Shown here in pieces: positions 3,994-56,298 of a stretch of DNA of 64,000 nt (positions are counted from its first letter, which is position 1; each line of letters begins with the position of its first letter). The notes under the pieces were generated by a model. It saw only the letters and a program-made list of their open reading frames with translations. It made no database searches and was not told the DNA's origin. The stretch spans positions 95 through 64,094 of the forward strand of contig DATGWP010000080.1 in assembly GCA_035299425.1 (NCBI GenBank), written 5' to 3'. The translations under genes were made by a program, and so were the position numbers. The stretch comes from Chitinophagales bacterium. GTDB lineage: Bacteria; Bacteroidota; Bacteroidia; Chitinophagales; LD1.

Positions 3994-4052
3994 ACAGCCA
4001 CACACCCCGCCCGGTGCAGAGCCACCGGTCGCCCCTCTCAAGAGGGGATAAT
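3994..4052. repeat. REP-like intergenic element, copy 1
   Basis: The sequence is ACAGCCACACACCCCGCCCGGTGCAGAGCCACCGGTCGCCCCTCTCAAGAGGGGATAAT. It contains the hairpins CCGGTG/CACCGG and CCCCTCT/AGAGGGG and is followed at once by a terminator palindrome. Confidence 0.75.
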
Positions 4053-5357: not shown

Positions 5358-7790
5358 CTACATCAACCCCTCTTTCTTCAACCTGTTCTTAGCCCCAGCA
5401 TCTAACCCTATTTTTATTTTTTCTTTTCCGCCGCCCTGCACACGCAAAAACAAGCTGGCCCCGGTTTTGGCGGTAATGCCTATGTTTTCGGGGGTGTAGT
5501 TTACATCCTGCTTTTTAAAGTTATTCCACGGTACTTGTATAGTAAGGTCGGCTTTGCCGTTTACTTTGTAGGTGCCCTGTATAAACATGCGCAGCACATT
5601 GCTGGCAATCTCCATACGGCGTATAGTAAGCAGTGTGCCTACCAGGGTAACGGTGTCTTTAATTTCATCGAAGGTTACATTATTAAAATCGCGGTTTTTG
5701 AAAATGTACTTGCCCACGTTGGCCAGCGGCTCGAAATTGGTGATACGGCCACCTTTAAGCGAGAAATAAATATCGCCCTGCATACTATCTGTTCTGGGTG
5801 TGTAGGCGGTATCGAGCGGTGCCGAAAAATTTACATAGGCACTCAGGTTGCCATTCAGGTTATCGGCGGTAATAGCGGTTTGGTCAAAGTTATCGGCGCT
5901 TAGCAGAAACTCTTTCATGTTGACATGCTTAATCTGCACATTGCCTGAAATTTTATCGGTGGTTCTGCCGGTTTGTAGGCCGCCATTTACCGTTACGGTG
6001 CCTTTGCAGGTATTCAGGTTAAAGTTTTTCAGCTCCATGCCCTGCGTAGATATGGTGGCTTCTCCCCTTACCTTTTGCGCTACAAACTTGCGGAAGGTAA
6101 ACAGGTTGCTGGTAAAATTTAACCGCAGGGTTACATCGTCTATCAGCTGGTCGATAGCATCCGATGCTGCCTTGCTGCCGGCACCGGTAGTATCTTTAGG
6201 TGCGGCGGATATTTGCGAAAGGCTTTTTTCGGTAAGTACGCTCGACAAATTAAACTTAGGGGCATCGAGGGTAAGGTTGCCCACCATCTTCTGGTTACGG
6301 TTAGATATCAGGCGTGTAACACCATCGAGGTAACCTTTAACCGAAACCTGGTTACCATTGAGTGATGCGCTTAAATCTTTAATATCCATTTTGAGCTGAT
6401 CGAAGTCGATATCGGTATTGATATTTTTGAGTTGTATACCCCGCACATTGTAAGCAAAGCCGCCATCTTTTATTTTAAGGTAGCCATCTAAAGTATCTTC
6501 TCCTCTTCTTTGGGTGGCAGGTATATAGGCACTTAACACGCCGTTATAACTTAAGGACAAATCGAGATCTCCGCCGGTAAACTTGTAGCCGCCGGGTGGT
6601 AATACCCGGTTAAGTGCCATAAGCGGGGTTTGGGAAGCCGCGGTTAGGGCAATACGCAAAGCCAGCAAATCAGTGATAGTAACATTGGCAGACACCGGCA
6701 CTCCCTCTACTTTTACCGAAGGAACATTAAACATAAGCGCCGAATTGGCGTCATCATTTTTGCGGCTGGTATCTACGTGGTTAGTAAACTGGCCCGTTAA
6801 ATTAAACCCGGTAAAATTGATGCCGCTGAATTTCATGCGGGCGTTATTCAGGTTAAAATAAGCATCTACCTGTGGAGGGAAATCGGGAATAACCGGCCCG
6901 TAAACCACTACCCTTACGTCTACCGAATCGTTGAGCTCTATATCTTTAATATATCCCTGTATTAAATCGGAAAGTATGCCGCGTGCGGCCTTAAAGTCGG
7001 TTTTGGGGTTACTGAACTCCAGACTTAATATACCCGGAGGTGCGCCAAAATCAAAGAAGCCTTTGCCATCGTAAAACTGCCCATCCATTTCAAATTTAGA
7101 GGGGTGAATTATCAGGCGCTTTTTATCATTATCAATACTCATGTTGACCTCAAGGCCCGCCGTTTTATTTTTGAAGAAGGCACCCTTATCGGCTTTAAAC
7201 ACCATGCTGTCAATATGCATCTCTCCGGTAAGGTGCATAATGGGGGCAAGGTCGCCACCCGGTACTTTACCGGCCAGCTTAACCACTGTAAACGACATGT
7301 GCTGCCCGCGGATATCATCGTGCTGAATAAACTGCAGGTTACGCACGTCTATTTCTTTTACATCGAAGCCAACATTGGCCCCCCCTTCCGACTTATAGCG
7401 CAGTATATCGCTGTTTAAATAGCCGTTGGTATCGCGCACCAGGAAGAAACGTCCGCCATCGAGCGATACTTTACTAAAATCGAGCTGTTTGCGGAAAAGC
7501 TGCAGCAGGCTCATGCGCAGATAAATTTTATCGGCCTGAAAAATCTCTTTTTTATACACCGAATCTTTAACCGATAGGCCCTTGATGGTAAGAGCCAGGC
7601 GGGGGAAATCATTTAAAATACTGAGCTGAATTTTGCCAATGTTAAGTTCGCCTTTAATGTTTTTATCCAGTTTAGATTTCAACTGTTTTATAAGGGCCTG
7701 CTGGTTAGCTTCTACATAAATAAGAAGGCCGGCCACAAAAAGAACGCTGAGCAATACAAGCGCACCAAGAACTTTTAAAAATTTACTCAT
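5358..7790 (-). CDS. AsmA-family outer-membrane biogenesis protein
   Basis: 810 aa with an N-terminal TM anchor (MSKFLKVLGALVLLSVLFVAGLLIY). The AsmA-like N-terminal region is followed by a long beta-rich body. Confidence 0.75.
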   Translation of the reverse strand: MSKFLKVLGALVLLSVLFVAGLLIYVEANQQALIKQLKSKLDKNIKGELNIGKIQLSILNDFPRLALTIKGLSVKDSVYKKEIFQADKIYLRMSLLQLFRKQLDFSKVSLDGGRFFLVRDTNGYLNSDILRYKSEGGANVGFDVKEIDVRNLQFIQHDDIRGQHMSFTVVKLAGKVPGGDLAPIMHLTGEMHIDSMVFKADKGAFFKNKTAGLEVNMSIDNDKKRLIIHPSKFEMDGQFYDGKGFFDFGAPPGILSLEFSNPKTDFKAARGILSDLIQGYIKDIELNDSVDVRVVVYGPVIPDFPPQVDAYFNLNNARMKFSGINFTGFNLTGQFTNHVDTSRKNDDANSALMFNVPSVKVEGVPVSANVTITDLLALRIALTAASQTPLMALNRVLPPGGYKFTGGDLDLSLSYNGVLSAYIPATQRRGEDTLDGYLKIKDGGFAYNVRGIQLKNINTDIDFDQLKMDIKDLSASLNGNQVSVKGYLDGVTRLISNRNQKMVGNLTLDAPKFNLSSVLTEKSLSQISAAPKDTTGAGSKAASDAIDQLIDDVTLRLNFTSNLFTFRKFVAQKVRGEATISTQGMELKNFNLNTCKGTVTVNGGLQTGRTTDKISGNVQIKHVNMKEFLLSADNFDQTAITADNLNGNLSAYVNFSAPLDTAYTPRTDSMQGDIYFSLKGGRITNFEPLANVGKYIFKNRDFNNVTFDEIKDTVTLVGTLLTIRRMEIASNVLRMFIQGTYKVNGKADLTIQVPWNNFKKQDVNYTPENIGITAKTGASLFLRVQGGGKEKIKIGLDAGAKNRLKKEGLM

Positions 7791-8080
7791 TACGTAAAGG
7801 GGTTTACGCTTCTATGCAAAGATACTACCAAGTATTATCAAAGCTATTAAACCCGGTTACTAAGGCCTGGTGGGGAAAAATGGGGAGAGAAACCCCAACC
7901 CCAGCGGCTCTCCATTATTTGTGGAAATTGTGTGCTCTCTACATCTGTTATTAAAACAGCATACAGAAACATATAGCAAACCCCGCCAGCCTATTTGTAA
8001 ATACTTAACACCGGGCTTGTAGGTTCCGTTTAGGGTATATAGGGGGCTTTTCTACCTTTACACCTTCAAAAAAAATAATA

Positions 8081-10687
8081 ATGTTTTATCGCTTTCTAAT
8101 TGTGGCAGTTGTGTTAAGTGTGGTAGGTTCATGCTCTACTTCGAAAAACGGGCGTAAAGGTAAAAACGCCATGACTATAGATATGGATACGGTAGAGGTG
8201 ATAGCCTCGCGCGAAAACCCTTACCGGGCATCGGCTACCAAAGATTTTGACCTGGTACATACCAAACTTGAGGTGGGCTTTAATTACCAGCTGCAACAAC
8301 TAAATGGCAAGGCAACTATTACGCTTAAGCCTCATTTTTATCCACAATACACGCTTACGCTGGATGCCAAGCAATTTGACATAAAGCAGGTGAGCCTGGT
8401 AACAGGCCCCGATTCGCGCGAAGGGCTCCAATACACCTACGATTCGCTGGAATTGAAAATACAGTTAGACAAAAAATATGAGGCGGGGCAGCAGTTCAAG
8501 ATTTACATAGAATACACTGCCAAACCCGAAGAGCTTAAAAAGGGCGGCAGCGCGGCTATTACTGATGATAAGGGGCTTTATTTTATTAACCCGCTGGGCA
8601 AAGACACCAGCAAGCCCATACAGATATGGACACAGGGCGAAACTGAATCGAACTCTTGCTGGTTCCCTACTATTGACAAGCCTAACCAGAAATTTACCGA
8701 TGAGATTTACATAACACACCTGAAAAAGTATTCATCGCTGAGCAACGGTGTGCTGGTATCGTCTACCCCGGTAAACGACAGTATGGTAACCGACTACTGG
8801 AAAATGGACCTGCCCCATGCTCCCTATCTGGTAATGATGGCCGTGGGCGATTTTGCCATAGTGCGCGATATGTGGCGTGATGTGCCGGTGAACTACTACG
8901 TAGAAAAAGCTTATGAGCCTTACGCTAAAAAAATATTTGGTAACACACCCGAGATGATGGAGTTCTTCTCGCAAAAGCTTGGTTTTGATTACCCATGGCC
9001 AAAATACTCGCAGGTGGTAGTGCGCGACTATGTGAGCGGAGCTATGGAAAACACATCGGCTACCTTGCATGGTGAGTTTATACAGCGCGATTCGCGCGAG
9101 TTGCTGGATGAAACCTACGAGGATGTTATTTCGCACGAGTTGTTTCACCAGTGGTTTGGCGATTTGGTTACATCTGAAAGCTGGAGCAACCTGCCGCTGA
9201 ATGAGTCGTTTGCTACCTACGGCGAATACCTGTGGAACGAATACAAGTACGGGCGCGAGTATGCCGACTATAAGTTGCAAATGAACTTTGATAAGTATAT
9301 GGTTGAGGCCAATGAGAAAAACGTAGACCTGGCCCGCTTTTACTACGAAGACAAGGAAGATATGTTTGATGCGCACAGCTACGAAAAAGGCGGGCTGCTT
9401 TTACATTACCTGCGCAAAACGGTTGGTGATGAAGCCTTTTTTAAATCGGTGGAGCTGTATTTGAAGACGAACCAGTTTAAGCCGGTAGAGATACACCAGC
9501 TGCGCATGGCCTTTGAAGAAGTGACTGGTAAGGATATGAACTGGTTTTTTAACCAGTGGTTTTATAATTCGGGCCACCCTATGCTGAACGTGAGCTATAG
9601 CTACGATGCTGATAGCATATATGTAACCGTAGAGCAAAAACACAACATAGAGAAACCGCTTACGTACCAGCTGCCATTTAGAATTGATGTATGGTATGGC
9701 AAGGTGATAAGCAGCTACAACGTAGTGCTGAAAAAGAAAAGCCAGGTGTTTGCCTTCCAGGCATATGGCAAACCCGATTTGATTGATTTTGATGCGGAGC
9801 GCGTGGTATTGGCCGGTAAAAAAGAAAACAAGACGATAGAGAATTATGTATTTCAATACCATAATGCACCGCTATTTGCACAGCGGTACGATGCGCTGAA
9901 AGCGTTGACAGAAAAACAAAAAGAGAGCGCCGCAGCAAGGCAAACATTTGTAGATGCGATGCACGACCCGGCCTATTTCCTTCGCCAGTTTGCTATAGAT
10001 GAACTGGAGATACCGAAGGATAACAAGGATAGTATACTCGCCACCATGGCAGAACTGATCAAGAGCGATAAGGTATCTACCGTGCGCCGGTCGGCTATTT
10101 TAAAATTAAGTAAGCAGCCAACTGCCCTTGATTACAAAACGTATTACGAAACGGCTATAGGAGATAGCTCGTACGAAGTTGCGGCCTCGGCGCTTAAAGC
10201 CATAAACGAGGTAGACACCAAGAAGGCACTGGAGATTGCAAAACAGTTTGAGAAATCTGACAATCATGATATGGCAGGCAGTGTGGCCGATGTGTATGCC
10301 AAAAAAGGGGACGAGAGCTACCAGGGCTTTTTTGAAACCAAACTGCGCAACATTACAGGCATAAACAAGTATTCATTGCTTTACTACTATGCTAACTTTT
10401 TGACCCGCATGGATAAAGCCGTGGTGCTAAAAGGAATACAAACCTTAGAAGAACAGGCTATGGCTACGGACAACCACTTTTTGATTAGTGGTGTTAAAGG
10501 CTCGCTTAAGCGCATTGTAAAATCATTTGATGATAAGAAGAAACGCGCGCAGAGCCAAATGGCAAGCGAACAAAGCACGAGTGCCAAGATGGAACTGGCA
10601 GAGAAAGTAAGTGACTACGATTTGATAATAAGCAACGCCAATGATGCTGTGCTGCGTGTGACTAAGAAGAATGAGTTGAAGAAGTAA
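8081..10687 (+). CDS. M1-family zinc aminopeptidase (aminopeptidase N-like), lipoprotein
   Basis: Contains GAMEN (SGAMENTS) and HEXXH-18-E (VISHELFHQWFGD...WSNLPLNESFA). The lipobox-type signal is MFYRFLIVAVVLSVVGSC. Confidence 0.9.
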   Translation: MFYRFLIVAVVLSVVGSCSTSKNGRKGKNAMTIDMDTVEVIASRENPYRASATKDFDLVHTKLEVGFNYQLQQLNGKATITLKPHFYPQYTLTLDAKQFDIKQVSLVTGPDSREGLQYTYDSLELKIQLDKKYEAGQQFKIYIEYTAKPEELKKGGSAAITDDKGLYFINPLGKDTSKPIQIWTQGETESNSCWFPTIDKPNQKFTDEIYITHLKKYSSLSNGVLVSSTPVNDSMVTDYWKMDLPHAPYLVMMAVGDFAIVRDMWRDVPVNYYVEKAYEPYAKKIFGNTPEMMEFFSQKLGFDYPWPKYSQVVVRDYVSGAMENTSATLHGEFIQRDSRELLDETYEDVISHELFHQWFGDLVTSESWSNLPLNESFATYGEYLWNEYKYGREYADYKLQMNFDKYMVEANEKNVDLARFYYEDKEDMFDAHSYEKGGLLLHYLRKTVGDEAFFKSVELYLKTNQFKPVEIHQLRMAFEEVTGKDMNWFFNQWFYNSGHPMLNVSYSYDADSIYVTVEQKHNIEKPLTYQLPFRIDVWYGKVISSYNVVLKKKSQVFAFQAYGKPDLIDFDAERVVLAGKKENKTIENYVFQYHNAPLFAQRYDALKALTEKQKESAAARQTFVDAMHDPAYFLRQFAIDELEIPKDNKDSILATMAELIKSDKVSTVRRSAILKLSKQPTALDYKTYYETAIGDSSYEVAASALKAINEVDTKKALEIAKQFEKSDNHDMAGSVADVYAKKGDESYQGFFETKLRNITGINKYSLLYYYANFLTRMDKAVVLKGIQTLEEQAMATDNHFLISGVKGSLKRIVKSFDDKKKRAQSQMASEQSTSAKMELAEKVSDYDLIISNANDAVLRVTKKNELKK

Positions 10688-10696
10688 TAAGGACCA

Positions 10697-10755
10697 ACAG
10701 CCACATACCCCGTCCGGTGCAGAGCCACCGTCCACCCCTCTCAAGAGGGGACAAT
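10697..10755. repeat. REP-like intergenic element, copy 2
   Basis: The sequence is ACAGCCACATACCCCGTCCGGTGCAGAGCCACCGTCCACCCCTCTCAAGAGGGGACAAT. It differs from copy 1 at about 6 positions by my alignment and is also followed by a terminator palindrome. Confidence 0.75.
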
Positions 10756-33891: not shown

Positions 33892-33925
33892 AAAAAAATC
33901 CCCCTCTGCCATAGCAAAGGGGGAT
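33892..33925 (-). terminator. Rho-independent terminator of the 2164-aa gene
   Basis: The stem is ATCCCCCT/AGGGGGAT. On the minus strand it is followed by a T7 run (plus-strand A-run 33892..33898). Confidence 0.75.
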
Positions 33926-40467: not shown

Positions 40468-40529
40468 AAAATCCGAGTTTTGTTTGGCAACAATATTCGG
40501 CATGAAGCAGGCCCGAGGGCGACCTACAA

Positions 40530-40559
40530 TTCATGAACCCCCTGTTTTGGGTTCACGAA
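40530..40559 (-). promoter_or_regulatory. Inverted repeat between the RR1 stop and the start of the 2164-aa gene (terminator or operator)
   Basis: TTCATGAACCC and GGGTTCACGAA are separated by 8 nt and are complementary at 10 of 11 positions. No T-run follows on the minus strand. Confidence 0.35.
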
Positions 40560-40590
40560 ACGGCGGAACGTATAAAATGCGGGCTGATAA

Positions 40591-44271: not shown

Positions 44272-44303
44272 AAAAAAACCCGCCTTCATTTCTGATGGCG
44301 GGC
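44272..44303 (-). terminator. Rho-independent terminator of the 1009-aa gene
   Basis: The minus strand reads GGCCCGCCATCAGAAATGAAGGCGGGTTTTTTTA. Confidence 0.75.
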
Positions 44304-44347: not shown

Positions 44348-47300
44348 CTATTGTTTTATAAACCTTTTCGCGGCGCTTTTACCCTGGGTGGTTTTTACCT
44401 TCACGGTATAAGATCCCTGCGCCAAAGCGGCAATATTCAGTTTTGTGATCTGGCCTTTTATAAAAATTACCTGCTCACCAATTGCCGAGTAAACTTCCAG
44501 CGCTTCTATCTGCTCATCGCATACAAGCATCAGATAATCGGTAGCGGGGTTAGGGTATATCTGCATGCTGAAATCATCTGTGGCTATATCATTTATGCCA
44601 TTACATATTTCTACCACTACAGCCACGCTATCGGTAGCCACGCAACCTAAAGCGTTGGTAGCGGTAACCGAATAAGTAGTAGATACAGCTGGTGTTACCG
44701 TTTGCGAAGCAGTGGTTACACTATTGCTCCACACGTAACTTACATTGCCTGCAGCGGTAACTACAGTACCCTGGCCGGCACAGATAGTATCATCGGCAGC
44801 GGTAACTACAAGGGATACCAACGGATTAGGTACATTAATAGTATCTGCCACCGAGCAGCCGTAAGCTGATAAAGTTACGGGATATACGCCCCCTGCGCTA
44901 ATTGCGTACAATGCAGTGTCAGTGCTATAACGCACCAGGCCTACGGCATCATATTCTACCCAATCGTTGGCTATATCAGTAGCAATAGCCCAGCGCACGG
45001 CGTCTATATTCATTGCCGATGGCAACTGCACTTTAAATATAGTGGCTACCTCGGGCCCTGCCACTGCGGTAGCTGTATATACTACCGACCAGTTGGCGGT
45101 GGTTGCATCACGTACATATACAGTATCTATATGGCCCGGTGCACTGGTTTCATATATCAGCACCTCTGATGCCAATACCGGGGTGGTATATCCTACTACT
45201 AGAAAATCGCGGTCGTCGCCATAATCATCGGCAGTCCATGCGGTATTTATATCGCCATAATCGGGATAGGTGTTGGGCTCGCCAAGTAGTTGCTGAGCCG
45301 ACCAGCTGGTAGGGCTGTACTGTGTGCTAAAATCAATTACCAAATCTGCCCAGGTAGTATCGGGGCCGAAGGTGAACGTGGTATCGGCAATAGTTATATC
45401 AAGGGAAGTTGGGCTACTCAGTTTCACAATGCCTGCATCGTTTTGGCACAGAATGCCATCGAAAGATAGATCAGGAAGGGTTAACTGGGGCAATACAGTC
45501 AGGTTGGTAATTACTACACTATCGCAGGCAAAAAAGTCGTGATACCTGCCGCTGGTAGTATAAGTGTGTGCACCTACGGTAATACTTTCTCCGTAGCAAA
45601 GTGTCGGGAAATATTCCATTACATCTTCACTGCCATAATCAATATATACCTCTACGGTGCTATCGCAGCCATAATACTGGTAATAGTATCCTGCCAGGTA
45701 ATAGGTTGTACCGTTTAGGGTTACGCTGTCGCCACCGCAAATGCTGAATTCGTAGTTATGATAATCCGGCTCAAGTTCATGGAAGTAAACTTCCACTATA
45801 CTATCGCAACCAAAGTATTGGTAGTATGTACCGTACGAGGTGTAAGTCCTTCCGTTAATGGTAACACTATCCCCCGCACATTTTTGTACGTCGTGATATA
45901 CATACGGCGGTTCAATTTCAGTTACCGTTATAATTACTACGCTATCGCAGTCGTAAGTTATTGGGTAGGTGCCCTCTTCGGAATATACATTGCCCCGAAA
46001 AGTTACACTATCACCTGTACAAAAACTAAGGTTGTAATTTATTGCAGGGGGTGCGTCATTTATAACTATTGTATCTTTTGCCACGCAGTGTGCCGCATCG
46101 AACACGGTAGCTATGAATGTACCGCTACCGGTATGTATTATGCTATCGGCACATAGCCAGGTTACATCATTATCGTAAATATTGGAGGTGTATGGACCAG
46201 TGCCACCGGTAATGGTAAGACCCAACTCGTGCAGCACAGGTGCACAGGCAGGCACTACATTATCTATAGCTACTGAAAAGCCTATGCAGGTATTAGTACC
46301 ATTGTACTCAAATGCTCCCATATCAGGTGTGCCGTTGCGCAGGTATTCGCGCTGATCGAACAAGCCCGCTACGTTTGCTTCGGCTGCATCTATAGCCGGG
46401 CTGCCGGTTATAAGTGCATGTGTAAGCATGTAGTGACCGTTATCTCGCAAGGTAGTATCCAGCACATTTAAAGCGCTGGCACCGTAAACATTACCAGCCA
46501 CTACACCACCAATTACTGCACCGGCAGTATCACCAAATAAATTATGGCCATCGAGCGATTGGAAATCACCCCACAAGTCCTGACCCGCACCGGCAGCTGT
46601 ATTGCCTACAAAAATACAATTGCTGATACGGCAGGTAGAGTTTGGTGCGTTTTGCAAGGCACCGCCCCTTGATTGAGCATGGTTATTATAAAAGGTACAG
46701 TTAATCACATCCATTTGGCCACCGGCATGGTTCTTTACCGCACCACCAGCACCGGTAGCGGAGGTTGAGGCGCTGGTGTTGTTGCTAAACGTACTGTTGG
46801 TTATACGCATGTATCCACCGTTGTTGAATACTGCACCACCACCCTCGCCGCCTGCATCGGTAGTGTAGTTGTTTTTAAACGAGCAACCATTAATTATAAC
46901 CGTATCGCCGTTGGCAAATACACCACCGGCCTGGTATTGCGCGTTGTTATTAATGAATACACAGTTATTTAAAGTGCTATGTGCGCCGCAACTACTCATA
47001 AACGAAGAACCAAAGGCACTGTTGCCGTTATTTGAAAAAAGAAGATTATTAAAGCTTACGCGTATGCCACTAAGATTAACGCCTATATTGTAATAAATGC
47101 CGCTTATGCGCAGGCTCATATCTTTTGGGCCGTTGATAATACAAAATGTTTGAGGTAGCGGCCATAAATACGCATCGCCACCTACACATATATCTACTAC
47201 ATGCGGGTTGGCCATAGTGGCACTGTTATCGGCATTAGCGCTTGTCATGGCCCAGGTAAGTGAACCGGGATCGCTACCCGATAAGGTGCTTACATAAAAA

Positions 47301-47377
47301 TGAGTGGCATTGGCGGCCTGCCATGAAAAAAGCAGGCTGCATAAAACTGCGAGATGAAGGGTAAATTGTTTTCTCAT
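44348..47377 (-). CDS. T9SS-tailed surface protein: right-handed beta-helix (PMP / choice-of-anchor-Q-like), four two-Cys CDS modules, an unassigned beta-sandwich-like module, one Ig-like repeat and a T9SS C-terminal domain
   Basis: 1009 aa with a signal peptide. The beta-helix repeats include GGGAVFNNGG..., GAGGAVKNHAG..., RGGALQN... and DMGAFEY. It has four ...C.GDS.T..G.tY...G.Y....GCDS.V... modules. The tail is IYPNPATDYLMLVC.... Confidence 0.8.
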   Translation of the reverse strand: MRKQFTLHLAVLCSLLFSWQAANATHFYVSTLSGSDPGSLTWAMTSANADNSATMANPHVVDICVGGDAYLWPLPQTFCIINGPKDMSLRISGIYYNIGVNLSGIRVSFNNLLFSNNGNSAFGSSFMSSCGAHSTLNNCVFINNNAQYQAGGVFANGDTVIINGCSFKNNYTTDAGGEGGGAVFNNGGYMRITNSTFSNNTSASTSATGAGGAVKNHAGGQMDVINCTFYNNHAQSRGGALQNAPNSTCRISNCIFVGNTAAGAGQDLWGDFQSLDGHNLFGDTAGAVIGGVVAGNVYGASALNVLDTTLRDNGHYMLTHALITGSPAIDAAEANVAGLFDQREYLRNGTPDMGAFEYNGTNTCIGFSVAIDNVVPACAPVLHELGLTITGGTGPYTSNIYDNDVTWLCADSIIHTGSGTFIATVFDAAHCVAKDTIVINDAPPAINYNLSFCTGDSVTFRGNVYSEEGTYPITYDCDSVVIITVTEIEPPYVYHDVQKCAGDSVTINGRTYTSYGTYYQYFGCDSIVEVYFHELEPDYHNYEFSICGGDSVTLNGTTYYLAGYYYQYYGCDSTVEVYIDYGSEDVMEYFPTLCYGESITVGAHTYTTSGRYHDFFACDSVVITNLTVLPQLTLPDLSFDGILCQNDAGIVKLSSPTSLDITIADTTFTFGPDTTWADLVIDFSTQYSPTSWSAQQLLGEPNTYPDYGDINTAWTADDYGDDRDFLVVGYTTPVLASEVLIYETSAPGHIDTVYVRDATTANWSVVYTATAVAGPEVATIFKVQLPSAMNIDAVRWAIATDIANDWVEYDAVGLVRYSTDTALYAISAGGVYPVTLSAYGCSVADTINVPNPLVSLVVTAADDTICAGQGTVVTAAGNVSYVWSNSVTTASQTVTPAVSTTYSVTATNALGCVATDSVAVVVEICNGINDIATDDFSMQIYPNPATDYLMLVCDEQIEALEVYSAIGEQVIFIKGQITKLNIAALAQGSYTVKVKTTQGKSAAKRFIKQ

Positions 47378-47429
47378 ACATGTTGGTTTTAGTTGAAAGG
47401 TGAACCAAAGATGATTCTACCACCGGCCC

Positions 47430-47477
47430 GCAGCAACTAAATGGTACAAGATGCAACCTAAAGGGTATGAAAAGCAG
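47430..47477 (-). promoter_or_regulatory. Conserved two-box motif, copy 1, upstream of the 1009-aa gene
   Basis: On the plus strand, GCAGCAACT (47430..47438) is followed after 25 nt by GGTATGAAAAGCAG (47464..47477). Internal half-sites are CAACTAAA and CAACCTAAA. Confidence 0.5.
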
Positions 47478-47490
47478 AATAAGGAGTAAC

Positions 47491-49443
47491 CTACTGCTTA
47501 ACCGGAAAAGCGATTGTAAATTCGGGTTCAGGTATTTTGGCATAAACCATAGCCCCCCTTAGCTGGCGGGTAAGCTCGTACACCATGCGCAAGCCCAGGG
47601 TAGGAGATTTTTTTACATCGAAACCTTCGGGCATGCCGATACCATTATCGGCGTAATGCAGGGTACACAGACCGGTATTATCGCTGCTGATTTGTATTTT
47701 TATAAGGCCGCCTGCATGATTTATTTGGGCATACTTAATTGAGTTGGTAACCAACTCGTTTATAATAACCCCCAATGGGATAGATGTTTCAATATCTAAT
47801 GTAAGCTGAGGTGGCCTTATGCTACATTGTATTTGCACGGCAGAAGCGTTGAGGGCGCTTTTGAGATGCTGGCAAAGCTGCTGTATGTAATCCTGCAAAA
47901 GGATGGCTGTAAACTCCTGCTGCATGTATAATTTTTGGTGGATAAGGGCAATGCTTTTTATACGGTTGTGGCTATCGCGCAAGGCCTCCTTAGCAGCCGC
48001 ATCGGTTACCGTGTTGGCCTGCAGGTTAAGCAGGCTGCTTACAATTTGAAGGTTATTTTTTACCCGATGGTGAATTTCGCGCATCAGCATATCCTTGTCT
48101 TTGGACTGCTGCTCTATTAGGGCATTTTTTTCTGCCAGTTGCCGGTTGGTTTTATCCTTCTCTTTACCGGTTCGGAAAATGAGAAACACCACAACAGCAA
48201 ATAATAACGCCAGTAACGCAGCCAATAAAACACCTACGCGCAAATACCGGTTGTTCAGTTTAAGTATCTGAAGTTCCTGCGTTTTTTGCGTTGTTTGGTA
48301 TTGTACTTCCAGTTCGCGTTGTAACAGCTCGGCACGGGCCTGCACATTCGCTATACTTTTTTGCTGGTCATCATTAAATACCGAATCATTCCAGGCGCTG
48401 TACTGCGTAAAATATTCAAGCGACTGTTCATACTTCTTTTTCTTACGGGCAACCTCGCTAAGTATTTTGTATCCCTCGCGTATAAAAACACGGGCATTGT
48501 AAAACTGTGCATCGTGTAGCAGGCGCTTGCCCAGCACTTCGGCTTCGGCAGTTTTATTTTGTTTTAAGTAAAGGTTGCATAATGCCATTATAGGGTTAAG
48601 CACGTTAATGGGCCGTTTCAGACTATCGAACAAAGCTATTGCCTGCAATAACATTTGTTGTGCTTCTGCCGGCTTATCCATCTGCGCATATAATTCTCCC
48701 ACACCGGTTAGTGTCACTGCATATTCGTAGGCCCTTGTGCCGCTGCGGTTAGCAAAGTCAAGGGCTGCACTCATCATCACTTCAGCCGAATCTTTCCTGG
48801 CTGCCCGCATATATTCGCCGGCCATGTTGGTAGCTATCAGCCCGGCAAAAGCCAGATTATTGATAGCAGTAGCCTGCTGCATGGCTTGTGCATAATACTT
48901 TAAACAAAGCTGAGGCTCGCGCCCGGCAGCGCCATACACGGTGGCAATGTTATTGCAGCATGCGCCGATAGTGCGCTTATCGCCCGATTGTTCGGCAGCC
49001 TTTAATCCATCTAAATAATATTTAAGCGCGTTTTCGTAATCGGCATTGTCCTGGTACATTCCCGCTATCAGGCTTTTGCAGGCAGCTTCGTAGTACTTAT
49101 TGTTGGCGCGCTTTGCATAATCCAGACTACGGCTATACTGGTCCATTGCTTCGGGCAGGCGGTTTTGTATGGCCCGTATAAGTCCGCGTGTGCGGTACGC
49201 CTCTGCCAATAATACAAGCGAATCGCCCGCAGGGGCCAATCTTATCTCCTCACCCGTTAAGCGTAGCGCCTCTGCGGTATCTGTAAAAGCAAGTTTATAG
49301 GCTAATACACCACTGAGCCTTGCCTTTGCACTATCACTTTTTACGCTGATAAGTTGCCCGCGCAACTCTTCTACGGTTTGCGCATGTGCAGACACAATAG
49401 CAAACATAAGTAAGAGCCATGTATATATTTTAGGCAAGGTCAT
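47491..49443 (-). CDS. Sensor histidine kinase: extracytoplasmic TPR domain, one TM helix, HisKA_2-type kinase (HK2)
   Basis: 650 aa with the signal MTLPKIYTWLLLMFAIVSAHAQ. TPR-like repeats are followed by the TM helix LRVGVLLAALLALLFAVVVFLIF. The H-box is IHHRVKNNLQIVSSLLNLQ, followed by an ATPase domain. Confidence 0.85.
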   Translation of the reverse strand: MTLPKIYTWLLLMFAIVSAHAQTVEELRGQLISVKSDSAKARLSGVLAYKLAFTDTAEALRLTGEEIRLAPAGDSLVLLAEAYRTRGLIRAIQNRLPEAMDQYSRSLDYAKRANNKYYEAACKSLIAGMYQDNADYENALKYYLDGLKAAEQSGDKRTIGACCNNIATVYGAAGREPQLCLKYYAQAMQQATAINNLAFAGLIATNMAGEYMRAARKDSAEVMMSAALDFANRSGTRAYEYAVTLTGVGELYAQMDKPAEAQQMLLQAIALFDSLKRPINVLNPIMALCNLYLKQNKTAEAEVLGKRLLHDAQFYNARVFIREGYKILSEVARKKKKYEQSLEYFTQYSAWNDSVFNDDQQKSIANVQARAELLQRELEVQYQTTQKTQELQILKLNNRYLRVGVLLAALLALLFAVVVFLIFRTGKEKDKTNRQLAEKNALIEQQSKDKDMLMREIHHRVKNNLQIVSSLLNLQANTVTDAAAKEALRDSHNRIKSIALIHQKLYMQQEFTAILLQDYIQQLCQHLKSALNASAVQIQCSIRPPQLTLDIETSIPLGVIINELVTNSIKYAQINHAGGLIKIQISSDNTGLCTLHYADNGIGMPEGFDVKKSPTLGLRMVYELTRQLRGAMVYAKIPEPEFTIAFPVKQ

Positions 49444-49463
49444 AGTTATTCAATATGCAACAT

Positions 49464-49507
49464 GCAGCAACTTTAGCTATGGTTCAACTTTATGGTATGA
49501 AAAGCAG
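49464..49507 (-). promoter_or_regulatory. Conserved two-box motif, copy 2, between RR2 and HK2
   Basis: On the plus strand, GCAGCAACT (49464..49472) is followed after 21 nt by GGTATGAAAAGCAG (49494..49507). The exact 8-mer CAACTTTA occurs twice, 17 nt apart (49468 and 49485). Confidence 0.5.
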
Positions 49508-49536
49508 TATAGGTGGTACAAAATACATTGCGGGCA

Positions 49537-50296: not shown

Positions 50297-50370
50297 TAAA
50301 AAATCCCCCTCTGCTTTGCGCAAAGGGGGACAAACAAAACTCAATCACCCCTGCCAGGCAGAGGTGATTG
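50297..50370 (-). terminator. Tandem terminator hairpins of the 1930-aa gene
   Basis: One hairpin is AATCACCCCTGCC/GGCAGAGGTGATT, at about 50344..50370. The other is TCCCCCT/AGGGGGA (50304..50330) followed by a T-run on the minus strand. The second is homologous to the terminator at 33892..33925. Confidence 0.75.
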
Positions 50371-50378
50371 TTCTTCTC

Positions 50379-53300
50379 TTAGTCTTTTACAAAAGATGTC
50401 CTGACAACACCGTTTGCAGTTTGAATGCTTAGCATATAGGTGCCCTGCGCCAGGGTGCTTACCTGCAGGCGGTTAACAGGTCCGTGTTCAATCAGCACCT
50501 TTTCACCCAATACATTGTAAACATCCACCCCCTGTATCATAACATCGCTGCTTATAAACAATACATCGGCAGCAGGGTTAGGATAAACCTTAACGGATGT
50601 ACCTGCCAGGTTTTCGATACCTGATATAATAACGTTTACCTCTGCAGAAGTTCCGGTGCATCCATCGGCATTTGTAACCTCTACTTTGTAATTGCCGGTT
50701 TGTGTAGCGGTATATGATTGCTGCGTAGCTGTGTTTATTATACTGTTATTAAAATACCATTGATAAACTGAGCTGGTAACACTACTGGTAAGCACCGCGC
50801 CGTTTTGCTGAATAACAGGTTCCGGTGTGGCGTTTATCACCACTACAGCTTCGGCAGATGTATCCGCCCCGCAGGTACCTGTTACAGCTACCTTGTAAGT
50901 GCCGGCATCGGCAAGTACAGTGTTGCCTACGGCATAAGCACTTACTGCTGAGCTGACAATGACCGCGTTATCTTTAATCCACTCGTAAACCAGGTTGCTG
51001 CCATCGGCGGTAACATCCAGGCTAAAGCCTAAGCCCGAGCAAACGGTAGTTGAAGCAACCGGCTGAGTAGTGATAGAAGTTGCCTGCCCCAAAGCAAGTT
51101 CCAGTGTAACTACGCTATCGCAGCTTTGTACCGAAGTAAGCGTATCATAATAAGTGCCTGCCTGTGTAAGTATGTCGCCGTTAAAATCGTAGCTATCGCC
51201 TGCGCAAATAGTCTGGCTAATGGTAGTAGCCACAGGTGCAAGCACCGTAAGGTTTAGTGTAATTACGCTATCGCAACCTACAGCGTTGGCAATAGTACGT
51301 GTGTAAACACCTGATGCAGTTATACTGTTGCCATCAAAAGTAAATGACTCGCCATTGCAGATAGTCTGGCTGAATGTGCTGGCCGATGGCTGTAATACTT
51401 CTACAGTATGCGATGCACTTGCCGAGCAGTTAGCGCCCAGCGATGCAGTTACCGTATAAGTACTGGTAGCCGATGGCGAAACAGTAACTGCGGCATTAGT
51501 ACCCAGGTTATTGCTCCAGCTATAGGTATTGCCCCCATTGGCAGTAAGCGTTACGCTTTCTCCCGCGCATACAGTTGTTGAACCGGTAATACTTGCCGTA
51601 GGACCACTCTGCACACTAATAGTCTGGCTGGCGGTGGCGGTGCATCCGCTCAAGGTAGCCGTTACCGTGTAAGTAGTAGCTGCCGATGGCGTAACAGTGA
51701 TGGCCGCAGTAGTTTCGTTGTTGCTCCAGTTATAGGTAGTGCCACCGGTTGCCGTTAAGGTAGCTGATAGGCCCGCACAAATGGCCGTTGGTCCGTTAAT
51801 AGATGCATTTACAGCTATTACACTAACCGCTTGCGAGGCAGTAGCCGAGCAGTTACCCGCACCGGTTACAGTTACAGTATAAGTAGTAGTGGCCGATGGG
51901 GTGAAAGTGGCGGCTGCATTGTTGCCACCGCTATTGCTCCAGGCGTAAATGCCGTTACCCGTTGCAGTAAGTGTTACTGGCTGACCGGCGCACACAGATG
52001 AAGCACCACTAATGGAAGCAATTGGCAGAGGATTAACCGTGATAGTAGCAGATGCAGTGGCTGAACAGTTATTAGCGTTAGAAACAGTAACCGTGTAGGT
52101 AGTAGTAGTGGCTGGTGCAACTGCCTGGCTGGATGCAGTGCCCAGGTTATTGCTCCACGCATAGGTGCTTCCGCCACTGGCATTAAGCGTTGTAGATACC
52201 CCCGCACATACCGTAGCCGAAGCCGGGCTAACTGCTGCGGTAGGATTGCTGTAAGCACTCACTAATTGCGAAGCAGTGGCGGAGCAAGTACCGTTTGTAA
52301 CGGTTACGCTATAGGTAGTGTTGGCTGATGGCGAAACAGTAACTGCGGCATTGTTGCCCAAGCCATTGCTCCACGTATACGTGCTGCCACCGGTTGCTGT
52401 AAGCGTTGTAGAGCCGCCAGGGCACACACCAAAGGCACCCGTAATACCTGCTGTAATTCCGTTGCTTACTGTAACTGCTACCGTATTGGATGTAACCGTG
52501 CCGCAACTGCCTGTAATTACTACGTGGTAGTTGCCCGCATTGGCAGCAGTAGCATTAGCTACACTGTAAGTAGCCGATGTAGCTCCATTAATATTCTGGC
52601 CGCCTTTGCGCCATTGGTAGGTGGTGTTATTACCTGCACTACCGGTTACTGATAAGCTAAACGGACCATTTACGCATACAGTTTGTGCAACGGGCTGTTG
52701 CGTTATAGCCGCTGATGAAATTACTGTAACAGTTGCCGCTGGCGAAGTAATGCTACCGCACGTGCCGGTTGCTGTAACTGTATAACTGCCGCTATCGCTT
52801 AAGGCAGCCGCAGGTATAGTGAAAGTGCTGTTGGTTGCATTTGCTATAACCACGTTGTTCTTCTTCCATACATAAGTGATAGTGCCTGCACCCGATGGAA
52901 CGCAGACTAATTCTATCTGTGTACCGGAGCACACTGTTTGCGATGCCGGGGTTTGGACAAAACTTGTGCTACCCAATACCGAAAGGCTGGCAGCATTAGA
53001 TGTGGTGCTACCACATGTACCAGTAACCGAAACAGAGTAATTGCCTATATCGCCTGCGGCTGTATTTAAAATAGTTAATGTGCTGGTAGTGGTGCCGGCA
53101 TAGTGGCCGTTATCGTTTATAGCCGTATTGCCCTTGCGCCATTGGTAAGTAAGCAGACCGGTACCGGTGGCAGTTACCGCAAATGTAGTGGTTGAATCCT
53201 GGCAGGTAGATGTGGCCTGTGGCTGCACCATAATGGCAGTAACAGGATTGACAGTAAGCAGGGCTGCGTTGGATGTTTGCGGCCCGCAGGTAGAGGTCAT

Positions 53301-56171
53301 TACGCAGGTATAACTACCGCTATCGGCTGCTGTAACCGAAGCAATATTATAAGAAGCGCCGGTGGCGTCGCTGATGTTTACGCCGTTTTTCTTCCACTGG
53401 TAAGTACCGCTGCCACCTGTAATAGCAATTGAGAAGCCAGCCGGCTGTCCGGGACACACCGTTACATTTTGCGGGTGCGATGATATAGTAGCGCCGGCAG
53501 CAATACCCAAAGTTGCGCTATAAGTTTCGCTGTTGTAGCAGGCATTGCTGATAACACAGGTATAAGTACCGGTATCGGTAGAGGCTACAGTGTTTATAGT
53601 ATAAGTTGCGTTGGTAGCACCGTTAATTAATGCGCCATTCTTTTTCCATTGGTAAGTAAGCCCGCTTTCATAACCGGCAGCTGTAAAGCTGGCCGTAGCG
53701 CCTATACACGCAGTAGTGTTAACCGGATTGCGGGTAATAGAAGGTAATTGGGCTACTAATCCGATTTCGGATTCGGTTAATGCGCGGTTGTAAATGCGTA
53801 TTTCATCCATAAAACCGTTCAGGGTATTAGCGCCACTTTGGTCAGCACCAAAACGTAATGGCGCCGTGTTGTTTGCAATGTTACCGGTAGCGGCAGTGCT
53901 TAACACCAAAGCGCCATTGATATATATTTTAACGGTAGCGCCATCGTACGTGCAAACTGCGTGGTACCAAGTGCTGCTGTTTAGCACTGGAGTAGTATGG
54001 TACGCATTACCCAGTATAATTACACGCAGGCGCGATTGATACAAATCCATTAAAAAGTTATTCGAACTGTTTTTATCTATCAACCGCTGGCTGCCGGCAA
54101 TCACATTTGATTTAAACCAGCAGGCTATGGTAATTTGATTGGTAAAGGAAGCAATAGCAGGATTGGAACCTATAGTAAGATAACTGCCGCCGCCTGGAAA
54201 ACTAAAGGCATCGAAACCATTGCCGTTACGGTCTGGCCCAGAGGTCATACCACCGGTTATACCGGGGTTGCCCATATTACTGGCGCTGAAATCTTTATAA
54301 AATTCGCCATTGATATTTACGGCGGGGTAATAAGCTACCAACCCGGTGCTGCTTACAGGTGCTGCCGGCATGCGGGTAAGTAATGCAGGATTTGAAGTAA
54401 CAGTACCGCAGGTATTTGTTGCAATTAATGTATACGCACCGGTATCGGCTAATGTGGCGTTATTAATTGTGAGTGTGGTTGTAGTAGCGCCATTTACATC
54501 AACACCGTTTTTCTGCCATTGGTAAGTATTATTGCTACCGTTTACAGCAGCTGTAAAGGTTATGTTTTGTGTGCCACAAATAGTAGCGCTTACAGGTTGT
54601 ACGCTAAAACCCGGCTCGCAACCCAGCTTAATTAAAAAGCCATTGTTGTTTACTGTGCTTATAGGCGATAGGGTGCCGGCTGTAAGATTATTGGCGTGGG
54701 TACCGGCCAGATAAACAACATTGCCCGAAATAGCAATACCTCCCGTTGTGGTATTATTGCCCTGGCTGTTAGTATTGTTTGCCCCCTCGCGGATGTAATA
54801 ATTATTGGCCCACACTGCAGAGGTGCCAGAGGCATAAGTCAGTTTATATACTAATATACCCGGGTAAGCATCAAGATTGCCTAAACTACCGCCAGGATAT
54901 GAAGGATTATAACTCCATGGAAAGCCACCTGCAGTTGCATGTCCGCCAACAGCTGCCCATATATTGCCATCTGTATCAAACCCTATGCCCTTGCCCGATA
55001 ATACACGGCCGGCACCCGAAGTAGTTGATACGGTATTTTGCCATGGACTGGCGAAGGATGCATTAAACCCACCAAACTGTATATAGGAAGCATTGCCGCC
55101 GTAACCAACCTCAAGCATATACGCCAGTTGTCCGTTTGGTTTTACAGCCAGGCCTTTAAACCGGTTAGTTACACCGGTGTTGCCAACCGATTGCGTACCC
55201 TGGTATACAAGGCTCGCGTTCAGTTTAATAATAATACCATAGCCATATATAGTACTGTTAATTTGCTGCCCGCCACCATTGTATTGCAGCGTTGTATATG
55301 AGCCCGATACGCTGGTTGCCATAAAAACATTTCCGTTTGCATCGGTACGTATTTCATCTATAAACTCCTGCCCAAAGCCGGCCTCGGCACCGTAGCGATA
55401 AAAATCTACCATGGCACCATTGGTATTGGTTATACGGCCATACCAGGTTTCGTAAAAATTAGTATTGTTTGCCGAGCCCATATTTACATTGGTGCCCGAC
55501 CCCGGATTGCGGTAATTAAAGTTTTGTGTAGAGGCGCTGGCCAGGTTATTGGTATTTACACTTGCACCAAAGTATACATAGCCCGTAAAGGCATCGTGGC
55601 ATATAACCATATTGGCTACATCGCCGGCACCTGAATATCCCATGCTATGTGTAAACTGGGCTACACCACCGCTGTTTAGTTTTACAATAAAGCCGTTAAT
55701 GCTACCTATATTGCTGATGGCAGTATTTGTATTACCAATATCAAAGGTTGTAGTAACACCATTGCCTGATGCATCGGTACCGGCGTAATAAACATTGCCG
55801 CTGGCATCTACAGCAATTGCAGTAGGCGTTAAGTAGGCAAAGCTGCCGTAAGTGGGGGTATGCACCCACTGCGGCACACCGGCCGGGTTGAACTTAGCCA
55901 CAAAGCAGCCCCGCATATTGGTATTGCCCATGGCTGGCAGCACCGTGCTGCCAATGGTTAACGTAGAGTTGTAATGCCCGCATACGTAAGTGTTGCCCGC
56001 CGCATCAGCTACTACATCGGTAAAATTTTCGAGCGAGCCGCCGCTGATGGTATTAGCCCACGTAAAACTTTGCGCGTAGCCGGAATTAAAAGCAAACAGC
56101 GCCAGGCAGAAAAGCAATACGAGGGGCATTGTTGTTTTTCGCCTTGTTTGCTTAAAGAATAAATTTTTCAT
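50379..56171 (-). CDS. Giant T9SS-tailed surface protein: beta-propeller-like repeats, LamG/ConA-like lectin domain, about 7 I-set-like Ig domains, 5 tandem Ig-like Cys repeats, 2 CDS modules and a T9SS C-terminal domain
   Basis: ORF 50379..56201, with the start moved to ATG 56171 (MKNLFFKQTRRKTTMPLVLLFCLALFAFNSGYAQ). The LamG-like stretch is ...ITIACWFKS...WYHAVCTYDG..VKIYINGAL...LRFG...FNGFMDEIRIYNRAL. The tail is VYPNPAADVLFISS.... The C-terminal ~800 aa is collinear with that of the 33973..40467 gene. Confidence 0.85.
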   Translation of the reverse strand: MKNLFFKQTRRKTTMPLVLLFCLALFAFNSGYAQSFTWANTISGGSLENFTDVVADAAGNTYVCGHYNSTLTIGSTVLPAMGNTNMRGCFVAKFNPAGVPQWVHTPTYGSFAYLTPTAIAVDASGNVYYAGTDASGNGVTTTFDIGNTNTAISNIGSINGFIVKLNSGGVAQFTHSMGYSGAGDVANMVICHDAFTGYVYFGASVNTNNLASASTQNFNYRNPGSGTNVNMGSANNTNFYETWYGRITNTNGAMVDFYRYGAEAGFGQEFIDEIRTDANGNVFMATSVSGSYTTLQYNGGGQQINSTIYGYGIIIKLNASLVYQGTQSVGNTGVTNRFKGLAVKPNGQLAYMLEVGYGGNASYIQFGGFNASFASPWQNTVSTTSGAGRVLSGKGIGFDTDGNIWAAVGGHATAGGFPWSYNPSYPGGSLGNLDAYPGILVYKLTYASGTSAVWANNYYIREGANNTNSQGNNTTTGGIAISGNVVYLAGTHANNLTAGTLSPISTVNNNGFLIKLGCEPGFSVQPVSATICGTQNITFTAAVNGSNNTYQWQKNGVDVNGATTTTLTINNATLADTGAYTLIATNTCGTVTSNPALLTRMPAAPVSSTGLVAYYPAVNINGEFYKDFSASNMGNPGITGGMTSGPDRNGNGFDAFSFPGGGSYLTIGSNPAIASFTNQITIACWFKSNVIAGSQRLIDKNSSNNFLMDLYQSRLRVIILGNAYHTTPVLNSSTWYHAVCTYDGATVKIYINGALVLSTAATGNIANNTAPLRFGADQSGANTLNGFMDEIRIYNRALTESEIGLVAQLPSITRNPVNTTACIGATASFTAAGYESGLTYQWKKNGALINGATNATYTINTVASTDTGTYTCVISNACYNSETYSATLGIAAGATISSHPQNVTVCPGQPAGFSIAITGGSGTYQWKKNGVNISDATGASYNIASVTAADSGSYTCVMTSTCGPQTSNAALLTVNPVTAIMVQPQATSTCQDSTTTFAVTATGTGLLTYQWRKGNTAINDNGHYAGTTTSTLTILNTAAGDIGNYSVSVTGTCGSTTSNAASLSVLGSTSFVQTPASQTVCSGTQIELVCVPSGAGTITYVWKKNNVVIANATNSTFTIPAAALSDSGSYTVTATGTCGSITSPAATVTVISSAAITQQPVAQTVCVNGPFSLSVTGSAGNNTTYQWRKGGQNINGATSATYSVANATAANAGNYHVVITGSCGTVTSNTVAVTVSNGITAGITGAFGVCPGGSTTLTATGGSTYTWSNGLGNNAAVTVSPSANTTYSVTVTNGTCSATASQLVSAYSNPTAAVSPASATVCAGVSTTLNASGGSTYAWSNNLGTASSQAVAPATTTTYTVTVSNANNCSATASATITVNPLPIASISGASSVCAGQPVTLTATGNGIYAWSNSGGNNAAATFTPSATTTYTVTVTGAGNCSATASQAVSVIAVNASINGPTAICAGLSATLTATGGTTYNWSNNETTAAITVTPSAATTYTVTATLSGCTATASQTISVQSGPTASITGSTTVCAGESVTLTANGGNTYSWSNNLGTNAAVTVSPSATSTYTVTASLGANCSASASHTVEVLQPSASTFSQTICNGESFTFDGNSITASGVYTRTIANAVGCDSVITLNLTVLAPVATTISQTICAGDSYDFNGDILTQAGTYYDTLTSVQSCDSVVTLELALGQATSITTQPVASTTVCSGLGFSLDVTADGSNLVYEWIKDNAVIVSSAVSAYAVGNTVLADAGTYKVAVTGTCGADTSAEAVVVINATPEPVIQQNGAVLTSSVTSSVYQWYFNNSIINTATQQSYTATQTGNYKVEVTNADGCTGTSAEVNVIISGIENLAGTSVKVYPNPAADVLFISSDVMIQGVDVYNVLGEKVLIEHGPVNRLQVSTLAQGTYMLSIQTANGVVRTSFVKD
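51400..52475 (-). repeat. Five tandem copies of the same ~215-bp repeat family in the second giant gene
   Basis: Protein repeats begin GITAGITGAFGVCPGGSTTLTATGGSTYTWSNGLGNNAAVTVSP... and end ...LGANCSASASHTVEV. The WSN signature recurs near 51510, 51722, 51935, 52150 and 52368. Confidence 0.8.
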
Positions 56172-56298
56172 AACGATTGAATTTTGTTTGAGCGCAAACA
56201 TCCTTCAAGCACGCCCTGTATTCCAGGCAACTTCATAAACGGTAGGTTTGAGTATATGAATGGTAAATAGCTATGTAGTCATATGCTATATTTGCCGC

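Follow-up and report, generated by a model that had tools for sequence, protein, structure and literature searches.

A 64,000-nucleotide (nt) stretch of a Chitinophagales genome (contig DATGWP010000080.1 of assembly GCA_035299425.1, positions 95 to 64,094; referred to here as the window) carries a row of minus-strand genes in which the response regulator (RR) gene RR2 is followed by the histidine kinase (HK) gene HK2 and by the gene of a 1009-amino-acid (aa) cargo protein of the type IX secretion system (T9SS). The two intergenic gaps of this row, each of ~100 nt, i.e. gap A between RR2 and HK2 and gap B between HK2 and the cargo gene, probably carry operators of the adjacent REC-LytTR regulator RR2, from which HK2 and the cargo gene would be activated. 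Each putative operator abuts a predicted sigma-A promoter of the Bacteroidota type and lies just 5' of it, in what would be an activator-type position relative to the predicted transcription starts.

On the coding (minus) strand each gap contains two imperfect direct repeats with the consensus yTGCaTyTyrTACC, separated by exactly 21 bp from TACC to TACC, which is two helical turns from centre to centre, and each repeat is followed by an A/T-rich stretch. LytTR sites described so far consist of two imperfect direct (or inverted) repeats of 9-11 nt with 11-13 nt between them and have no family-wide consensus (PMC4847170). Two direct repeats per site are found at all 18 sites from 12 lineages considered here, with the 21-bp distance at every one of them (a 10-nt core leaves an 11-nt spacer), a core information content of about 15-21 bits per 21-nt unit, and a co-encoded LytTR-domain regulator, namely RR2 or its orthologue. 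The assignment of the predicted sites in the two gaps to the LytTR operator architecture, and not to the AgrA type with its GTT core, is well supported.

The comparison across lineages started from a homology search with HK2, which returned orthologues of stepwise decreasing identity as well as the source record itself (P0001, a Chitinophagales metagenome-assembled genome, 100% identity), to which an exact-protein lookup of HK2 had not led; the orthologous loci compared have HK identities of 94, 86, 76, 73, 60, 57, 57, 56, 53 and 51%, and an extra locus, L115 (42%), came from a scan of metagenome contigs with the dimer pattern. In these 12 lineages (HK identity 42-100%) the order of RR, short gap and HK is kept together with the 21-bp-phased repeats, and an RR2 orthologue (54-98% identity) lies directly 5' of the HK gene in all 12. 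An orthologue of the 1009-aa cargo protein is encoded directly after the HK in seven loci; in six loci the orthologous gene (41-96% identity) has the predicted operator before it. Every RR-HK gap and every HK-cargo gap has the two yTGCaTyTyrTACC direct repeats; the sites of 10 lineages, 16 in all, keep the 21-bp register exactly when aligned, and L115 adds two sites. In MAFFT alignments the invariant columns are those of the distal (R1) and the proximal (R2) half-site, the -33 TTG, a -7-like box and the start codon, while the remaining gap diverges. The R1 of gap A, which is in exact 21-bp register with its R2, retains the columns TG..T..TA.C, and the R2 half-sites retain TGC...T.ATACCA in gap A and TGCATCT..TA.CATTT in gap B, in 7 lineages each.

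A position weight matrix built from the orthologous loci only, with the window left out, gave dimer scores of 35.3 bits at 47438-47479 (gap B) and 34.0 bits at 49489-49530 (gap A), compared with 8.2 bits for the next-ranking unrelated site of the window and a maximum of 15.4 bits over 30 composition-preserving shuffles. Scores above 20 in 1.06 Mb of other loci occurred in RR2/HK2 modules only. About 0.9 Mb of negative-control DNA was provided by loci from a scan of genome contigs by HK2 alignment, which found no orthologues, all hits being at most 49% identical and dominated by the generic HisKA_2 peptide EIHHRVKN. What the scan of metagenome contigs listed was for the most part tandem arrays of a 7-bp unit (CCTTGTA) and repeats in coding sequence, since any period that divides 21 satisfies the dimer pattern; L115 was the only genuine module among the matches listed, and the scan is uninformative on the size of the regulon. 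In L008 the gene after the HK encodes an aconitase and has no site, and an untrained 35.3-bit site lies at 9015-9056 on the minus strand, 5' of a divergent gene for a 1360-aa SprB-type T9SS cargo protein beside the RR. The predicted operator follows the neighbouring T9SS cargo gene and not a fixed position.

It has to be considered that the repeats may be real operators of another regulator, i.e. RR1, RR3 or an unlinked transcription factor, given that three LytTR regulators are encoded within 20 kb and that the sites are assigned to RR2 by co-occurrence only. This is unlikely, because six orthologous loci (L002, L004, L006, L008, L090 and L091) have the operator together with the RR2-HK2 module and no other two-component system in their flanks, and the gaps beside RR1 and HK3 carry different repeats. 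Furthermore, in L092 (51% HK identity; sites at 5884-5925 and 7895-7936) TCAC replaces TACC in four of the four half-sites, so that the two operators change together within one genome. Specificity-determining residues could not be read from this TCAC variant, as only A68G and V178I are unique to the L092 RR, which is too weak a basis.

The first-pass annotation of this DNA had drawn attention to a different unit, consisting of the 9-mer GCAGCAACT and the 14-mer GGTATGAAAAGCAG, and its description of the letters is accurate. The 9-mer is exact in both gaps (47430-47438 and 49464-49472, plus strand), as is the 14-mer (47464-47477 and 49494-49507, plus strand), the spacers between them are 25 nt in gap B and 21 nt in gap A, the copies share their orientation relative to the minus-strand gene downstream, and the boxes do not pair with each other, the fold z-scores of the gaps (+0.72 and +1.17) being no better than those of shuffles. 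An exact pair of 14-mers is not rare by itself, as the window has 98 repeat pairs of at least 14 nt. What is beyond chance is their presence in two ~100-nt gaps of one cluster, in one orientation and kept in orthologous loci, and the repeat owes its significance to this location, orientation and conservation. As a functional unit, however, the combination of 9-mer and 14-mer gives way to the pair of TACC-ended 14-mers 21 bp apart. The supposed equivalence of the boxes in both gaps also fails, since the 14-mer is the proximal half-site in gap A and the distal one in gap B, and the 9-mer lies at about -37..-29 in gap B and at about -20..-12 in gap A. The exact 14-mer is, on the predicted map, a near-consensus half-site at non-equivalent positions of two operators, and the difference between the 25-nt and 21-nt spacers arises because the 14-mer is shifted by 21 nt and the 9-mer by 17 nt between the gaps. 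A striking exact repeat can mislead in this manner, its functional register differing from that of the exact matches.

The same annotation had proposed that direct repeats with an AGTT core are the operator, with the 14-mer and the 9-mer forming one two-box unit that is bound in the same way in both gaps. The AgrA-type consensus comprises two 9-bp repeats with a GTT core about 12 bp apart, which AAAGTTGAA fits loosely. As had been reported, gap A has two copies of CAACTTTA (TAAAGTTG on the minus strand), 17 nt apart, and TTTAGGTTGC and TTTAGTTGC in gap B are 20-21 nt apart, the form TTTAG(G)TTGC being present there twice. This model is nevertheless very improbable. Its period is unequal between the gaps, so that the AgrA-type repeats are not 21-bp-phased, and they are not conserved either, as the second AGTTG copy of gap A and the 9-mer are lost in L001, L002, L003, L006 and L008. 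The two boxes stand at non-equivalent distances from the conserved -7 box, and within the 9-mer of gap B the TTG alone is invariant (7 of 7 lineages, the remainder varying), as expected of a -33 element. The AGTTG elements resolve into this -33 TTG, invariant before the cargo gene, and a lineage-specific copy: at the position of the 9-mer in gap A, L001 (94% HK identity) has AGTAGCTGC, L002 has AGTATGTGC, and L006 and L008 have unrelated sequence. The general idea that HK2 and the 1009-aa gene are controlled by an RR through LytTR-type direct repeats and a shared promoter remains standing without the AGTT core, and is favoured by the 21-bp-phased repeats of the 12 lineages, always beside an RR2 orthologue, and by the untrained site of L008.

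Both gaps share a further fixed layout, in which 6 nt separate the proximal repeat from a TTG and 20 nt lie between this TTG and a -7-like 8-mer, with 29 nt between the end of the repeat and the -7-like box. The housekeeping promoter of B. fragilis and other Bacteroidota has TTTG at -33 and TAnnTTTG at -7 (PMC2483708), where the -7 box spans -12..-5 and a TAnnTTGY variant exists (PMC9723704), and from this published geometry the repeats would lie at about -76..-63 and -55..-42 and the TTG at -35..-33. In common with Bacteroidota sigma-A promoters, whose two elements are about 19-21 nt apart, both gaps have TTG, 20 nt and (C)AnnTTTG, the exact strings being TTG-N20-CATCTTTG and TTG-N20-CATGTTGC with 5 of the 6 defined -7 positions, from which the starts are predicted. 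In the -7 region of HK2, TTGCA is invariant in 7 of 7 lineages at a fixed distance from R2; in the -7 box of the cargo gene the A..TTG columns are invariant, the orthologues reading CATGTTTG and L092 having a perfect TAGTTTTG at the same offset. A sigma-70 promoter scan was uninformative for this phylum. As an alternative -7 box, TAAAGTTG at 49468-49475 was rejected for lack of conservation, in contrast to the conserved CATGTTGC. A perfect inverted repeat of 8 nt that joins the -33 region to the cargo leader (47388-47395 and 47434-47441; TTTAGTTG / CAACTAAA) was likewise set aside; it is absent in L001 and L002 and probably due to chance.

The shared orientation of the motif, its fixed distance from the start codon in both gaps, and a conserved -7 region (CATGTTGC) that is not a canonical sigma-A box could also be taken to mean that the gaps share a promoter element for an alternative sigma factor, e.g. 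of the extracytoplasmic function (ECF) type, or a constitutive UP-like element, with no RR involved. We regard this as highly improbable, as tandem 14-bp repeats 21 bp apart that reach to about -76 correspond to no sigma-factor architecture, no sigma or anti-sigma gene accompanies the module in the compared loci, and TTG-N20-(c)AnnTTTG fits the housekeeping promoter of the phylum. That the repeats are a non-functional remnant of duplication or gene conversion, or else an RNA element (a leader structure or small RNA), is extremely improbable: while exact identity of the 14-mer is restricted to the window and the L001 lineage and 14-mer repeat pairs are many in the window, the repeats are kept down to 42% HK identity as the intergenic flanks diverge, Rfam has no match in the gaps, whose folding z-scores are those given above, and the repeats lie 5' of the predicted transcription starts.

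RR2-dependent activation of HK2 and the cargo gene has to be weighed against several points. On the side of the promoters, the -33 TTG is missing before the HK in L004, L008 and L090, both -7 boxes start with C and not T, the -7 box of HK2 matches the TAnnTTGY variant and not the main consensus, a leader of just ~9 nt is predicted for HK2, and the starts near 47401 and 49452 are predictions; by our inference, the deviations of the -7 boxes would be consistent with weak, activator-dependent promoters. On the side of the sites, the link to RR2 is the co-occurrence described above. The half-site register was set by eye in the orthologues to which the scoring was then applied, the window sites (through their leave-window-out scores), the minus-strand site of L008 and L115 being independent of it, and the specificity figures cover the 64-kb window and the 1.06 Mb of fetched loci. 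Finally, no operator was found 5' of RR2 itself, unlike in classic autoinduced LytTR operons.

In the mechanism proposed for RR2, the phosphorylated regulator would bind both half-sites in a head-to-tail arrangement along a single face of the DNA and would thereby help RNA polymerase to use the weak promoters of HK2 and the cargo gene. RR2 itself would be made from its own operator-less promoter behind the double terminator, and RR2, HK2 and the cargo gene would form one transcription unit with two internal RR2-dependent promoters, of which that of HK2 would create a positive feedback on the kinase and that of gap B would supply the T9SS-secreted 1009-aa surface protein. As no operator lies 5' of RR2, only the kinase and the output gene would be subject to the feedback. 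We infer binding, activation and transcription starts alike from the DNA. The features on which the proposal is built are collected in Table 1.

Table 1. Features of the RR2-HK2-cargo region in window coordinates; promoter elements and positions relative to transcription starts are predicted.
Feature	Position	Strand	Remarks
Gap A distal half-site R1, ATGTATTTTGTACC	49515..49528	-	17.8 bits, leave-window-out matrix; predicted about -76..-63
Gap A proximal half-site R2, CTGCTTTTCATACC (14-mer copy 2)	49494..49507	-	16.2 bits; predicted about -55..-42
Predicted -33 TTG, HK2 promoter	49485..49487	-	6 nt past R2; TTG in 5/10 aligned lineages
9-mer copy 2, AGTTGCTGC	49464..49472	-	promoter spacer, about -20..-12, not conserved
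Predicted -7 box CATGTTGC, HK2 promoter	49457..49464	-	20 nt past TTG; predicted start near 49452
Gap B distal half-site R1, CTGCTTTTCATACC (14-mer copy 1)	47464..47477	-	15.5 bits; predicted about -76..-63
Gap B proximal half-site R2, TTGCATCTTGTACC	47443..47456	-	19.8 bits; predicted about -55..-42
9-mer copy 1, contains predicted -33 TTG (47434-47436) of cargo promoter	47430..47438	-	about -37..-29
Predicted -7 box CATCTTTG, cargo promoter	47406..47413	-	20 nt past TTG; predicted start near 47401
1940-aa T9SS cargo gene	50379-56201	-	first in row; followed by double terminator, then RR2
Two intrinsic-terminator-like hairpins between 1940-aa gene and RR2	50303..50370	-	terminator scan
RR2, REC-LytTR response regulator, 241 aa	49537..50262	-	proposed binding protein; domain search
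HK2, TPR sensor histidine kinase, HisKA_2/PhyK-type core	47491..49443	-	3' of operator A; Pfam and NCBIfam
1009-aa T9SS cargo protein, choice-of-anchor Q domain and C-terminal sorting domain	44348..47377	-	likely output gene
Terminator-like hairpin and T-run, GCCCGCC..GGCGGGTTTTTTT, after 1009-aa gene	44272..44303	-	read from sequence

Both box pairs are intergenic within the minus-strand row. RR2 consists of a REC and a LytTR domain, and its alignments with BtsR (E 4e-14) and YpdB (E 2e-16) cover the full length; its start is the ATG at 50262 (241 aa), in place of the earlier TTG at 50337 that had been assumed. Neither the terminator scan nor folding revealed a terminator in gap A or gap B, and strong terminators stand at both flanks, so that RR2, HK2 and the cargo gene are probably one operon. 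The hairpin after the 1009-aa gene is kept in L001 and was missed by the terminator scan because its loop is 12 nt long; it would mark the end of the RR2-HK2-cargo unit, beyond which follow HK1-RR1 and then the gene of a 2176-aa cargo protein. In 9 of 11 lineages the length of the RR-HK gap stays at 92-95 nt although its sequence diverges. R1 begins only 3-13 nt past the upstream stop codon, and the layout of stop codon, operator, promoter and start codon is tightly packed and length-constrained. The pairing of HK2 with RR2 is unusual in that a kinase core of the HisKA_2/PhyK type is combined with a receiver closest to the PhyR-/PdtaR-type and a LytTR output domain, HK1 and HK3 of the same island being usual LytS-type kinases (PF06580).

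With the operators of AgrA (P2/P3), ComE, PlnC/PlnD, VirR and FsrA the predicted sites share two imperfect direct repeats of similar spacing, a position that would be just 5' of the promoter of the regulated gene, and a REC-LytTR regulator encoded beside its kinase with a proposed self-feedback. They differ from these in the Chitinophagales host with its -33/-7 promoter in place of -35/-10, in a longer conserved half-site of 13-14 nt, in the order RR-operator-HK-operator-target with feedback on the kinase only, in a kinase core of the HisKA_2/PhyK type and not of the LytS type (PF06580) or AgrC type, and in an output that is a T9SS-secreted surface protein rather than a peptide-signalling or toxin locus. 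The site of E. coli YpdB (PyrR) in PyhjX, checked on the sequence, reads GGCATTTCAT-N11-GGCATTTCAT and has the same 21-bp period, and its core GCATTTCAT..CC is shared by some half-sites (TTGCATTTCATACC in L115 and TTGCATTTCATCAC in L092). PyhjX is the top match of the matrix in 20 kb of E. coli DNA and in the right register, but its 11.8 bits are below the 15.4 bits of shuffle noise. In PyhjX, TT or TG stands in place of the invariant TA of TACC, RR2 is 22% identical to YpdB, and YpdA is a LytS-type kinase. The likeness may reflect deep conservation or convergence; it is a resemblance, not membership.

Another dimer of this kind (36 bits, TAATGCTTTTTATACC-N7-ATGCATTTCATACC) lies at about 8000 of L112 (minus strand, reversed coordinates) and at L139 93-126, 80 nt 5' of a gene that encodes a membrane protein of 405 aa. 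With its Shine-Dalgarno sequences the contig is not Bacteroidota-like, and the dimer might be due to chance or represent a LytTR-type operator from a different phylum with half-sites of this class.

Bacteroidota have very large numbers of LytTR response regulators. Full-text literature searches returned no paper on a LytTR operator or regulon in this phylum, and none that links LytTR regulators mechanistically to type IX secretion or to the control of T9SS cargo. The predicted sites would be biologically ordinary, i.e. activator sites of a known class in an understudied phylum; they offer a precise, testable operator, with consensus, spacing and position relative to the -33/-7 promoter, and a small predicted regulon of the partner kinase and the adjacent T9SS-secreted surface protein.

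Other repeats are present in the island. In the intergenic region that separates RR1 from the 2176-aa cargo gene, a repeat pair with a 22-bp period (GTTTCGTGAAC / GGTTCATGAAT; window 40529-40561, minus strand) is near-identical in L003 (about 1068-1105), where the flanks diverge, and each of its half-sites is nearly palindromic; it may be an operator of RR1. A 21-bp-phased repeat at 56232-56265 (minus strand; TACCATTCATATA / TACCGTTTATGAA) faces the 1940-aa gene, has a TTG after it, and may be an operator of RR3. This repeat overlaps the annotated start codon of HK3 (56260), and as the divergent gap is only 58 bp long, either HK3 or the 1940-aa gene may have been given a wrong start codon. The repeat gives no match to the RR2 matrix; of the weaker version of the motif that had been noted here the letters are present (56227-56263, one base longer than given) and the kinship with the motif is not borne out.

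Taken tentatively, as a possibility that we regard as rather doubtful, the island might consist of three 'sense-and-display' cassettes arranged in tandem and insulated from one another, in each of which a LytTR two-component system controls its own giant T9SS surface protein via a private direct-repeat operator, the RR2 cassette being rewired and having a YpdB-like half-site. The private operators may then be TGCaTyTyrTACC with a 21-bp period for RR2, TTCRTGAAY with a 22-bp period beside RR1, and TACCrTTyATrwA with a 21-bp period beside HK3/RR3. If this is true, the RR2 cassette would be unusual in that a HisKA_2/PhyK-type kinase and a PhyR-like receiver have been rewired to a LytTR output, and the proximity of the GCATTTCAT..CC half-site to that of E. 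coli YpdB would mean that LytTR specificity is deeply conserved, or has converged, across phyla.

After the 2176-aa and the 1940-aa genes, at 33893-33925 and 50298-50331, stand paralogous terminator hairpins (CCCCCTTTGC...GCAGAGGGGGATTTTTT, with TTTTGTTT before them), and the same element follows the 2166-aa gene of L003; duplication of the 3' ends of these giant cargo genes appears to have included the terminators. Elsewhere in the window, a ~55-nt intergenic element, ACAGCCACAyACCCCGyCCGGTGCAGAGCCACCG..CCCCTCTCAAGAGGGGA, is repeated at 3996-4050 and 10696-10752 with about 90% identity, and a separate terminator-like palindrome comes after each of the two copies.

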